NCBI GenBank assembly: GCA_964016885.1
Contig: OZ024743.1
Coordinates: 52,824,001 to 52,888,000, forward strand
Source: Eledone cirrhosa
Lineage: Eukaryota
Direction of reading: 5' to 3'
Length of the DNA stretch: 64,000 nt
Shown here one piece after another: positions 9,663-58,002 of this stretch. Position 1 is the first letter of the stretch, and each line of letters opens with the position of its first letter. The notes below the pieces were generated by a model. It saw nothing but the letters and a program-made list of their open reading frames with translations. It was not told the origin of the DNA and did not search any database. Made by a program: the position numbers and the translations under genes.

Positions 9663-10224
9663 TAAAATATTAAAAAAATAATGAATAAAACAATGAAACA
9701 GTTCCTTATATTAAACAAAAAAAGTTCATTATTTAACGATCGTTTCTAGGATATATATGTGTTAGAATTGGCATGCATATTCAACAGATCTATGTACAAA
9801 ATTATACAAAATTATACAAACTATCAAAATTAAATATACATACCAAACACATATATATGCCGTCTTCAGAAATAATTGTTTCTGAAGACGGCATATATAT
9901 GTGTTTGGTATGTATATTTAATTTTGATAGTTTGTATAATTTTGTATAATTTTGTACATAGATCTGTTGAATATGCATGCCAATTCTAACACATATATAT
10001 CCTAGAAACGATCGTTAAATAATGAACTTTTTTTGTTTAATATAAGGAACTGTTTCATTGTTTTATTCATTATTTTTTTAATATTTTATCTTGACTCTGT
10101 ATTCCGTTTATCTTTCACCGAAAGTGATTTTTCATTGCATCTCTTCTTTCCACGATATCCGGATTACATTGAGTTCTTCATACGGATTGGACACTACCGT
10201 AAACTCTTGGTAGATTTATCTACA
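9663..10224 (+). mobile_element. Foldback hammerhead element: ~212-bp inverted arms with no loop (axis 9875/9876) plus an unpaired 3' tail
   Basis: 9663-9875 is the reverse complement of 9876-10089. The 3' end ACACTACCGTAAACTCTTGGTAGATTTATCTACA recurs alone in (TA)n at 13132-13165. Confidence 0.9.
9875..10023 (+). ncRNA. Type I hammerhead ribozyme with a very long stem II (mirror copy on the minus strand at ~9728-9876)
   Basis: ATTGTTT-CTGAAGA-cGG.ATATATATGTGTT...AACACATATATATCC-ta-GAAA-CGATCG-TT-AAATAAT: stem I, stem II and a palindromic stem III are all present. Confidence 0.8.
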
Positions 10225-10714
10225 TATATATATATATATACATATACAGTGTACCCCCGGCATTCGCGGTCCCGGTTATTCGCGGTATTTTCTTTAGAAC
10301 TTAACTGATATTTGTTCGTGGAAACCACCGCATATTTTTATGGCTTTTTTCGTGGCAATATAACCTTATATAACCTGCTTTCAACCTTAACGCGATCTTC
10401 TGAAACTAAAAAAATCAATCTGTGAACGCAGATGTAAATATTTTGAAAAACGTTGCAACCGCAGGAAAACAGGAAGACGATACTTTGGTTCGAAAAGACG
10501 TTCCCTGGCGTAAGAATATATATATATATATACACACACACACTATATATATACATATATATACACACACTATATATACATATATACACACACTTATCCC
10601 GTCATAATGACGTAATGCAGACAACCAGGCATACAGACAGATATTATAAGGGTGCAACGTTATATCTATGTATCTATCTAAAAAGAGAAAGACTAAGAGT
10701 TATAGAGAGATATC

Positions 10715-10890
10715 GCTAAATCGCCTAATTCGGTCCCTAGCGCATTGAAAATTTGAAATTTTTTTGCTCAAAACACTCACAAGGACCATAAGTATTACAT
10801 GTGTAAAGTTTGAAAACAATCGGTTGGGCGGTTCTCGAGTTTTAGTGAATTGGACAGACAGACATACATTCTCTGTTTTAGATATATAGA
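10715..10890 (+). mobile_element. Putative non-autonomous Helitron/Helentron-like (Lep1/DINE-type) 3' portion
   Basis: AAAGTTTGAAAACAATCGGTTGGGCGGTTCTCGAG followed by (GACA)n and TTTTAGATATATAGA, an end layout typical of such elements; recognised by resemblance only. Confidence 0.45.
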
Positions 10891-10937
10891 TAATTACAGT
10901 TGGTGGGGTGAGGAACTAACGATAGGGTGAGGTGGGG

Positions 10938-11126
10938 ATAATAATTGTTTCTACATTTGGCACAAGGCCAGCAATTATCCCAGTGAATTACTGGTACTTT
11001 ATTTTATCGACCCCGTAAGGATGAAAGGCAAAGTTAACGTCGGCAGGATTTGAATTCAGACCATAAAGGGCCGTAACTTTTTGCTGCAAAACATGACGTC
11101 CGACCCTCTACCGATACTGCCAATCC
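10938..11126 (-). mobile_element. tRNA-derived SINE, family 1
   Basis: Full head, core and (ATT)n tail. Confidence 0.85.
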
Positions 11127-12044
11127 ACTGCCCTGGGGATAATAATGGTGCTGGGAAGGGGTACAAGATGAAATCTGGGGTCTATGATAAAACGTTGGAT
11201 CTTGTCTAACGCCCAATCCTTTGGGATTTTAAAATTTGAGATAGAAATAAAGAAATAAATATTTGACATTTCAGGCGAACTTTTAAAATATTTAAAATTT
11301 CTTCGTACCTCTCTCCTCTCCTCAATTTTTGTACCCCTTCTCTCTATGCTCCCTTTCTCTCTTCTCTCTGTACCCCCTCTCTCTATCGTAACCCTCTCAT
11401 GTTCTTTATTTCTTATACCCACACACACATTGCACACAAACACTTAACATACACACATACACACTCACACACTGCATACAAACACACATCACACTGACAC
11501 ATTACATGTATATATACACACTGACACATTACATGTTCATATATACACTGACACATTACATGTGTATTTACACTCATTACAAATACGAAAACACATTGCA
11601 CACATATACGAATACATATTATACCCACACACATATATGAATACATATTATACCTACACACAGATTGTGACATTTTAAAATGCTGTTCTTTCAATTTATA
11701 AAGATTGTAAATATAATTACATATACAAACAAAAATATATTTATTCCCTTCAAACGGAATGTAATTATATATATACAGAATCTGGCAAATTTTGTTTATA
11801 TTCAGCAAACACACACGCACACACACACACACACACACACACACACACACACACACACACACACACACACACACACACACACACACACACACACACACAC
11901 ACACCCACACCCACACACACACAACACGCGCGCGCGCACACACGCACGCGCACACACAGACACACACACAGACACACACACACACACACACACACACACA
12001 CACACACACACACACACACACACACACACACACACACACACATA

Positions 12045-12370
12045 TTATATTCAATGATATTAAATAATCAGATAAAATACAAAGTTTGTTTTATAAATAG
12101 AGACATACCCATGAAAATCAAACCTTATCGGTTGGAACTATCCAGTGAATTTCCAACCGATAAGGTATGATTTTCATGGGTATGTCTCTATTTATAACAC
12201 AAACTTTGTATTTTGTATTTTATCTGATGAAAGCGTATCAATGTGTCTTGGTACCCGTGAAATATATATAATAAAATAAATATGGTTTTACTCCAGTAAA
12301 CTGTTGAGCGCTCTTTTATAAACATTTATATTTGTTGGACTTCCAACAAATTAAATACCCATTCTACTTA
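12045..12370 (+). mobile_element. Short 3'-end derivative of the 15-19 kb PLE family, with an inverted 5' arm and a hammerhead
   Basis: Hairpin 12069-12137 / 12152-12226. HHR TATTTTAT-CTGATGA-..GTATCAA tgtgtc TTGGTAC..-GAAA-TATATA-TA-ATAAAATA at 12216-12278. Confidence 0.85.
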
Positions 12371-56564: not shown

Positions 56565-56613
56565 TAAACTAACCGTTATAATGCCTTACAAAAATATCAA
56601 AATCAGATGTTAC

Positions 56614-56770
56614 CGTTGAATAAGTAAAGAGTTCGCCTCCTGGTGTGAACGTAAGCAGCAGTTACCTGCCCTTGTATGGCGAATCCGAATTCTTCCGTTA
56701 TATTCTTAGGGTAGTTTCGATCGATACAGAACCTACCACGACATTTCCGGTACCTCCAAATATGGTCACC
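56614..56770 (-). CDS. Internal hemopexin-repeat exon (not in the ORF track)
   Basis: Acceptor TTTCTTTTAG, donor GTAAC; GDHIWRYRKCRGRFCIDRNYPKNITEEFGFAIQGQVTAAYVHTRRRTLYLFNG; phase 0 in, phase 1 out. Confidence 0.9.
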
Positions 56771-57522
56771 CTAAAAGAAATAAAAAGAATACATTTTTGC
56801 TACATAAAATGACGTAATATAACTGCGATGTTTCTTGGTACTGTTGTTGTTTAGTCCAATGTCAGCCGAGGTCCAGGAGACCAACAATCTATTGTTAGGA
56901 ATAAATATTTCTTACGAATAAAAAAGAAAATTTTGTACATGGCTGAATTCAATAAATGTAATCCTAGTTTTTCGAATAACATTCGATTCATTTGCAATTA
57001 TGCAAACAAGCCTCAATTTTATAGCCATGTCAGTAGAATGAACCCTTCATTCTTGCTCTTGTGTTGGCATGTGCGTATTTTGCATAATATGTAAATTAGA
57101 ATGGCTATTTTAGTTTAGTTCAAGTTTGTATTTAACATAAATATGTGACTACTGTAAATTCTCTTGGAAGGCGGAAGCATAAAATTACTTGTTTTCTGAA
57201 TAACGATATAAATATACGATTCCCAACCCGGGAGCACATTATGTCCTCAAGACACTATATTTGACGTTGATTCAGTCTACTCACCTGGCAAAAATGAGTT
57301 ATACCTGTAATTCAAGGGATCAGCCTTGTCACACATTGTATCACGCCGAATGTCTGTGAAATGCTCAGCCACTTACGTGTTAATTTCAGGAAGAGACACT
57401 TCAATTGATGAAATCAGCTGGAGCACTCATCATCGAAAACGACGGAGGTCCAACATTAATATTTATAGAATACACATCAATGCATACGCCAATGAGGATG
57501 TAAGTTGTAGAGAAATGTTTAC

Positions 57523-57683
57523 CTGAAACAAATATGTCCTGAACCATTTCTGTTTCCTGCCAAACTCCAAAGACACCGCTGCCGTGATGTTTTCTGGACT
57601 TCTTGGAAACATTCCAGATACCAGTGAACTATTTCTCTGTTTGGTTGGTAAGTAACACAGGGAGAACCAATGGACTAAGTCTC
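57523..57683 (-). CDS. Internal hemopexin-repeat exon
   Basis: Acceptor TTTTCTATCCAG, donor GTAAAC; DLVHWFSL..SLVSGMFPRSPENITAAVSL..RTYLFQ; phase 1 in, phase 0 out. Confidence 0.87.
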
Positions 57684-57750
57684 CTGGATAGAAAACAGTC
57701 AAGACATGTGTGAGTATATATATATATATATATATATATATATATGTATG

Positions 57751-58002
57751 AAGTATTTCCGTAGGAAGGGTAAAGGAGAGTGCTCTATGTATGCTACAGA
57801 GCTATTTAATTATGTTATAAACAACATTAGACAATTATTCCTTTTACCAGAGGTCTCACGAAGGCAGACGAGCTCAACAGAAACGTCTGAAATCGTTCAT
57901 CAGGTTCTGATGACCGATTTCAGACGTCTCTGTTGAGCTCGTCTGCCTTCGTGAAACCTCTGGTAAATGGAATAATTGTCTTATGTTGTTTATTACATAA
58001 TT
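57751..58002 (-). mobile_element. Intronic foldback hammerhead element; apex TCATCAG-gtt-CTGATGA (57897-57913)
   Basis: Arms 57808-57903 / 57907-58002; CTGATGA-cCGAtttCAGACG..CGTCTGcctTCGt-GAAA-CC tct GG-TA; (TA)n on both sides. Confidence 0.88.

Follow-up and report, generated by a model that had tools for sequence, protein, structure and literature searches.

Palindromic ends of hammerhead-bearing Penelope-like elements in Eledone cirrhosa turn at a family-specific base, likely the start of a capped RNA

We analyzed a 64,000-nucleotide (nt) stretch of the Eledone cirrhosa genome (assembly GCA_964016885.1, contig OZ024743.1, positions 52,824,001 to 52,888,000; hereafter the window, numbered from its first letter) that contains palindromes turning next to type I hammerhead ribozymes. 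The palindromes are the head-to-head ends of hammerhead-bearing Penelope-like elements (PLEs). The 5' starts of their arms pile up at one base specific to each family, and this base is very likely the 5' end of a capped RNA, that is, the transcription start of the element. A first-pass annotation had attributed the position of the turn to the ribozyme. The positional rule that it proposed exists and is strong in these reverse-transcribed elements; its placement at the ribozyme edge holds in families A, B and C only. The genome, that of an animal, measures 3.0 Gb and is rich in TA repeats.

Positions in the elements were counted from the C of CUGA, and the families were named A (site at 57.9 kb of the window), B (12.77 kb), C (9.87 kb), D (12.1, 15-19.5 and 28.8 kb) and G (19.6, 24.7 and 50.4 kb). 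The three palindromes said to turn within a few nucleotides of CUGANGA were confirmed, with their junction strings at 9875/6, 12768 and 57905 and with each string at the axis of a long inverted repeat of 133-428 nt (9662-10089, 99.5% identity; 12703-12835, 87%; 57803-58007, 92%). The two arms start at -7/-7 at the family C site, -6/-2 at the family B site and 0/-2 at the family A site. A type I hammerhead core is present in every one of these arms, its stems assigned by eye. Self-comparison of the window revealed no mutual similarity between these three families, in agreement with their description as unrelated. Two back-to-back cores, claimed for all of the sites, were found at these three and did not extend to 13.6, 19.6, 20.8 and 28.8 kb, where the core lies in a single arm or, at 19.6 kb, in neither. 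The sites at 13.6, 20.8 and 57.9 kb cannot be counted as independent because they are related (71-80% identity), and the copy at 53.4 kb is a further relative. The 16.8-kb junction, part of the long family D insertion, lies far from the core, as had been noted. Palindromes at 2.7, 13.9, 23.7 and 32.4 kb (2196-3259, 13763-14061, 23637-23703 and 32330-32553) have arms without a canonical CUGANGA core. In an Rfam scan of the window, the best 150 of 369 matches included no hammerhead family; the rows listed were microRNA matches driven by microsatellites. Each family has two fixed 3' ends, one tail-less (+206 in C, +96 in A) and one tailed (+343 in C, +167 in A), and the arms in the window are as follows.

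9662..9876, minus strand: family C tail-less arm, -7 to +206, core at 9869.
9875..10226, plus strand: family C tailed arm, -7 to +343, with a long stem II between its core CTGAAGA (9882) and GAAA (10004); 2-nt AT overlap with the left arm.
12067..12381, plus strand: family D foldback, left arm with an internal deletion, right arm from 12137 (-80, among the -80 starts listed genome-wide), core at 12224.
12703..12771, minus strand: family B tail-less arm, -6 to +62, core at 12765.
12771..12912, plus strand: family B tailed arm, -2 to +139, core at 12773.
13552..13733, unstranded: A-related foldback, left arm with a degenerate core and beginning a few bases 5' of it, right arm beginning in stem II (approximate mapping, not to the base).
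15112..19562, plus strand: long family D insertion, inverted 3' arm at 15112-16818, forward arm with its core at 19332 and with broken reverse transcriptase (RT) and GIY-YIG frames (16744-17992).
19560..19725, unstranded: family G foldback, right arm beginning 22 nt before GAAA, inside stem II and after a G; CUGA-side core in neither arm.
20687..20994, unstranded: A-related foldback, core CTGACGA in the left arm only (20793, minus strand); mapping approximate.
28544..28921, unstranded: D-related foldback, left arm from +35, right arm at or near 28737, which is 80 nt before the mutated right-arm core at 28817.
57741..57903, minus strand: family A tailed arm, 0 to +167.
57905..58007, plus strand: family A tail-less arm, -2 to +100, core at 57907.

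Arm starts were then mapped across the genome by anchored alignment and compared with a constant stopping rate (length decay). We sampled 100 loci of family A, 30 of B, 70 of C and 60 of D, with queries placed 3' of the core to avoid any prior choice of start; 30 loci whose query began at CUGA, duplicate places, arms at locus edges and starts 3' of the tested range were left out. Starts between -10 and +2 accounted for 41/60 arms in C, 44/146 in A and 13/41 in B, with a per-base stopping rate 4.5- to 47-fold above that elsewhere (0.057 versus 0.0012 per base in C). The peaks, whose bases were picked after the data had been seen except in a second family D sample, contained 41/60 starts in family C (-8..+1, 57-fold), 12/41 in family B (-8..+1) and 36/146 in family A (-16..-7). 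Family D behaved differently: 3/79 starts fell between -10 and +2 and 22/79 between -80 and -71 (14-fold), and the second sample of 20 further loci gave 10/21 starts in -82..-69 versus 2/21 at the core edge. Of the 45 paired arms of family G, 34 began 24 to 11 nt before GAAA, at a depth of 38-51 nt within the ribozyme; the core edge was the start in 0 of 69 short arms. The start site thus lies at -7 in C, -8 in B, -3 to -16 in A, -80 in D and about +40 in G. The expected genome-wide clustering was seen as peaks over length decay, while the core edge proved to be no general rule, since D and G lie off it. Solo, non-inverted copies also began at the family site (C, 8/19; D, 7/32); in the small samples of A (3/21) and B (2/13) the peak of solo arms at the core edge was not significant. 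Because solo copies share the start site, the site is a property of the template end and not of the inversion.

In family A we also noted 13 paired tailed arms that begin at +76..+95, just 5' of the tail-less end, as if one complementary DNA (cDNA) stalls on meeting the other on one RNA. About nine arms of this family begin at +57..+63, partly accounted for by overlap in stem I.

Genome-wide counts of exact motifs preceded by a non-consensus letter, which include some substitutions in long arms, placed the starts at single bases. Family C arms gave 116, 1,278 and 318 starts at -8, -7 and -6, and family D gave 199 at -80 compared with 50 at -79; 419 starts were counted at -8 in B, 51 at -3 in A and 1,471 at the family G site. 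A lone opposite-strand contig joint at 19252 corresponds to -80 of family D and, as a single case, was not counted. All five sites read YC|ANT. The initiator consensus is BBCABW, and all five sites fit it, as do 3-5 of 190 nearby positions in families A to D. A splice acceptor was considered as the origin of the fixed starts and rejected because no AG precedes any site; a constant upstream exon was also lacking.

A fixed RNA end might instead arise by processing, through a host nuclease or a ribozyme that cleaves in trans; an untemplated C added by the enzyme at any blunt run-off might account for the extra G described below. Such processing would account for the sharp edge, and the sites of C, A and G follow UUC, a valid hammerhead triplet. 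Those of B and D follow CCC and UCC, which are not valid triplets, whereas all five fit the initiator, and the element's own cleavage site in family C shows no peak comparable to that at -7. Only about 40 true starts were estimated there (7 of 100 listed rows, of 568, the remainder being a GUA triplet variant), compared with 18 of 28 at a control base. Processing thus appears quite unlikely as the source of the start site, and the few starts at the cleavage site indicate that the template of the short copies (stubs) was mostly uncleaved. The GUA variant replaces GUU in approximately 530 family C copies; both are valid cleavage triplets, and their use may be a sign of selection on ribozyme activity.

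An additional G frequently precedes the start. Among paired arms in which the upstream letter is not shared with the partner, G was found before 13/22 starts at C|A compared with 17/104 others (Fisher P = 9e-5). Family C has a G before 406 of its 1,278 starts at -7 and before 6 of 100 listed starts at -6; family D has a G before 111/199 starts at -80 and 7/50 at -79, where five of the seven are substitutions in long arms. Scored by eye, a G precedes 47 of 100 listed rows in B and 21/51 in A. A lone G separates the TA repeat from the element in 8 of 100 listed family D rows, and some joints carry a G on both arms. At full-length LINE-1 insertion junctions an extra G has been ascribed to the cap (PMC11702581; here and below, statements on published work refer to the available parts of the sources cited). 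The G expected of cap-terminated cDNA was thus present at the fixed initiator-like start, weakly so in family G.

These maps bear directly on the proposal that the folded hammerhead makes reverse transcription stall or switch template. In its favor, three unrelated families have their peaks no more than 16 nt 5' of CUGA, and at a few family A loci (L051, L055 and L130) the joint overlaps by 7-8 nt through complementarity of the stem I strands, a minor class in which ribozyme sequence shapes the joint. The D peak at -80 and the G peak inside stem II do not fit a stall at the core edge. The enzyme enters from the 3' side, yet stem II of family C is traversed with 0.000-0.003 stops per base, and immediately past the far side of that stem the rate rises to 0.073 per base; arms anchored at +121..+145 gave no stops in stem II or at its base. 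The one-base upstream edge, the extra G and the solo copies that begin at the same site also argue against a stall, which we consider very improbable, and the ribozyme is thus probably not what sets the 5' inversion.

The palindromes are not an assembly artefact. Hundreds of junctions have different sequences, and contigs of public runs carry the joints: those at 9866-9877 of the window were present in 8 of 15 listed rows, where the top runs may come from the very sample that was assembled. A single contig with a different organism code spans the 9.87-kb apex. Some joints recur letter for letter (approximately half of the listed family G rows and a quarter of the G-bearing C rows), as amplification of a few master palindromes would predict. 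Against this, and against foldback artefacts of sequencing, joints differ in overlap and filler across loci, the two arms are unequal in their tail, solo copies share the site and the public contigs contain the joints. This reading is largely refuted and has next to no probability left.

A further alternative is that the second arm is made from the first, by self-priming on an antisense template or by cDNA snap-back at a local hairpin (PMC3846280). It would fit the private variants shared by the arms of one locus and the joints that overlap. On the other hand, both arms can carry their own extra G, the position of this G, 5' of the sense strand, favors a sense template, and no arm begins at the -11/+1 pair predicted by the local 4-bp hairpin of family C. 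The whole tailed arm is located 3' of the end of its tail-less partner in 5/25 family C pairs, so neither was copied from the other; with the tailed arm wholly within the tail, both arms need an RNA template. Self-priming is accordingly a highly unlikely source of these palindromes. Arms of one family C locus differ by 0.3% compared with 2.9% between loci and share 51 of 61 variant sites, a pattern that is weaker in the older families A, B and D and suggests one RNA or one source locus.

The anatomy of the elements is that of PLEs. The core, GAAA, NUH and stems I-III of a type I hammerhead were read in the pseudo-long terminal repeat (pLTR) of families A to D and G, with a U3-A8 variant core in G (by eye). 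The predicted fold of family C stem II has an energy of -43.7 kcal/mol; when the core was held open in folding, stem I of this family did not close, and its pairing was read from the sequence. Tails are approximately 70-140 nt long. In pairs, the tailed arm stands opposite a tail-less arm in 70/73 cases in A, 15/15 in B, 24/24 in C and 27/27 in D; the tailed arms that are paired number 73/104, 15/30, 24/45 and 27/60, respectively. A pattern search found about 9,900 family C arms in the genome, and family G gave 26,456 tail matches. Long family C copies form tandem units of 6.4-7.2 kb with a ribozyme cassette at either end and an RT and GIY-YIG frame between the cassettes. The frames, of 630-691 amino acids, encode RT followed by a C-terminal GIY-YIG domain, with YxDD and VYK..YIG motifs. 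In the Atlas the nearest named clusters scored 0.96-0.97, with RVT_1/GIY-YIG on 21-49% of their members; Pfam and PDB sequence searches with the protein gave no significant match. HSDKTG (DKT) and VRWRA (RW) motifs were present in 3/3 long copies, and protein P0001 has the CxCX5C linker CNCRNKANC and CRLC..E..N..CNH, without CCHH and without CxxC inside GIY-YIG. The broken family D frames in the window are 40-44% identical to this protein and carry the same linker. Judged by its motifs, family C, together with the matching D frames, is a member of the Hydra clade of endonuclease-containing (EN+) PLEs, an assignment that rests on the motifs of C, with proteins recovered for C and, in broken form, for D. 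The Hydra clade as described (PMC8557442) shares DKT, RW, the CxCX5C linker, CxxC and CxH around E..N, the lack of CCHH and TA insertion; its units are mostly under 3 kb, in contrast to 6.4-7.2 kb in family C. The Neptune clade was rejected because family C has neither its CX2-5CxxC linker nor CCHH. Non-LTR retrozymes, which are tandem short hammerhead units with no coding frame, were also rejected: the arms here are single and head to head, and C and D have coding parents.

We propose the following route to a palindrome whose apex is the RNA start. The element endonuclease would cut both strands of a TA repeat, and priming from each DNA end would take place in the cassette closest to the RNA 5' end, at one or the other of its two internal start sites. 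The enzyme would read through the uncleaved ribozyme and run off the end of the RNA after 60-350 nt, often copying the cap as a C. The two cDNA ends would then be joined by blunt, short-overlap or filled end joining; among 125 joints, 43 overlap by 1 nt or more, 12 are blunt and 70 are filled. The ribozyme would be a neighbor of the start in some families rather than a stop signal; in A, B and C the RNA would begin with it, which is why ribozyme and apex fall together in these families. At the apex of two family C joints (L199/L200 and L182/L183), the first 12-13 nt of the arm are repeated, in up to three copies, which suggests repeated re-priming at the RNA or cDNA end. In the very abundant family G (e.g. 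L306, L315 and window 24620-24720) the RNA would begin within stem II, leaving the 5' copy of the ribozyme without its core.

Several points weigh against a capped transcription start as the apex. The cap and the start are deduced from DNA, the peak bases were chosen post hoc apart from the second D sample, and family A starts form a broad zone rather than a single base. Family G shows the G in only 10 of 100 listed rows; about half of those rows are AT-overlap joints, which would hide it. Of the 43 G in the first 100 family C rows, 22 are unexplained, 12 match the partner or repeat and nine are ambiguous, and part of the G excess can be read as partner-arm letters. Shared private variants fit one RNA but would also result if one arm had been copied from the other or if gene conversion had followed. 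Finally, none of 30 family C copies that run past the tail begins at -7 (23 continue upstream, 12 of them to the reference end and 11 past a small deletion, three of which were checked; seven begin downstream), and a capped full-length RNA copied from the 3' cassette should sometimes end there. Because none begins at -7, the long copies seem to have arisen from multimers made by read-through, from circles, or by moving the run-off cDNA to the 3' cassette. As a tentative and rather doubtful extension, PLEs may make a retrovirus-like strong-stop cDNA by priming near the RNA 5' end and running off at the cap. This short cDNA would join its twin (palindrome), join the target (stub) or move to the 3' terminal cassette, with a ribozyme-made circle as an alternative to the transfer and seamless partial tandems as the outcome. 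A strong-stop cDNA would explain the absence of -7 starts among the 30 long copies and would let a single cycle of a telomerase-related enzyme account for stubs, inverted repeats, tails and pseudo-LTRs.

Parts of this layout are known. EN+ PLE insertions carry an inverted 5'-truncated pLTR copy and a one-sided tail (PMC8557442; PMC3846280), and share with the elements here the head-to-head inverted copy, the palindrome at the inverted junction, the tail on one arm, TA targets and the hammerhead in the terminal repeat. The available text neither places their junction to the base nor mentions an extra G, and it gives tails of 30-40 nt rather than the 70-140 nt seen here. PMC3846280 attributes the palindromes to antisense self-priming and states that a sense template could not be excluded. 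PLE pLTR hammerheads were described with the same type I fold and small palindromic stem III, in opposite-strand pairs 100-700 bp apart and with the U3-A8 core variant seen in family G (PMC4209133); the available text does not link the turning point of the pairs to the RNA start, the link proposed here. An internal promoter and start in the pLTR have also been described (PMC2377424). In vitro, the green anole Poseidon protein PAc cleaves both strands and extends them, uses two internal start sites that bound the tail and accepts uncleaved ribozyme RNA as template, with the ribozyme near the pLTR-ORF (open reading frame) junction (PMC11167929). The elements here would correspond in these respects; that study, as far as its available text goes, treats insertion 3' ends and does not address 5' run-off, cap copying or cDNA joining. 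LINE-1 (PMC11702581) resembles these elements in the cap G at 5' junctions, the priming of both break ends on RNA and short-overlap joining. LINE-1 twin priming uses a second primer at variable internal sites and leaves non-overlapping pieces, whereas the elements here have two fixed start sites and two arms that usually reach the same 5' end, which makes a palindrome.

The window contains other repeats and one coding candidate. Another short hammerhead-bearing family occurs at 28298-28456 and 52059-52211 (cores at 28358 and 52119) and is not inverted here. Two tandem 5.7-kb copies of a non-LTR retrotransposon, 97% identical, occupy 34733-46174 on the minus strand, with a zinc-knuckle ORF1 and an endonuclease-RT frame of approximately 1,100 amino acids. 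A Mariner-like transposase remnant flanked by 108-nt inverted ends lies at 47597-48511 (minus strand), and a 1,762-amino-acid frame without stops at 58166-63454 (minus strand) is rich in Thr/Pro repeats, like a mucin exon.

A literature search of main texts, which took in few subscription papers, found no report in the available text of PLE inverted junctions at a transcription start or with a cap G. The elements are known, and the directly testable rule for the position of their turn is probably unreported. For the formation of the inverted ends of PLEs, the probably cap-derived G on both arms argues for a capped, uncleaved sense RNA. On this reading the ribozyme neither sets the turn nor, in family C, determines where the stub template begins. 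The abundant family G would start its RNA inside the ribozyme, and its 5' copy would be unable to cut. Taken together, the thousands of junctions in this genome provide a base-level map of transcription starts for PLEs, to the extent that the apex is, as is very likely, the RNA start.

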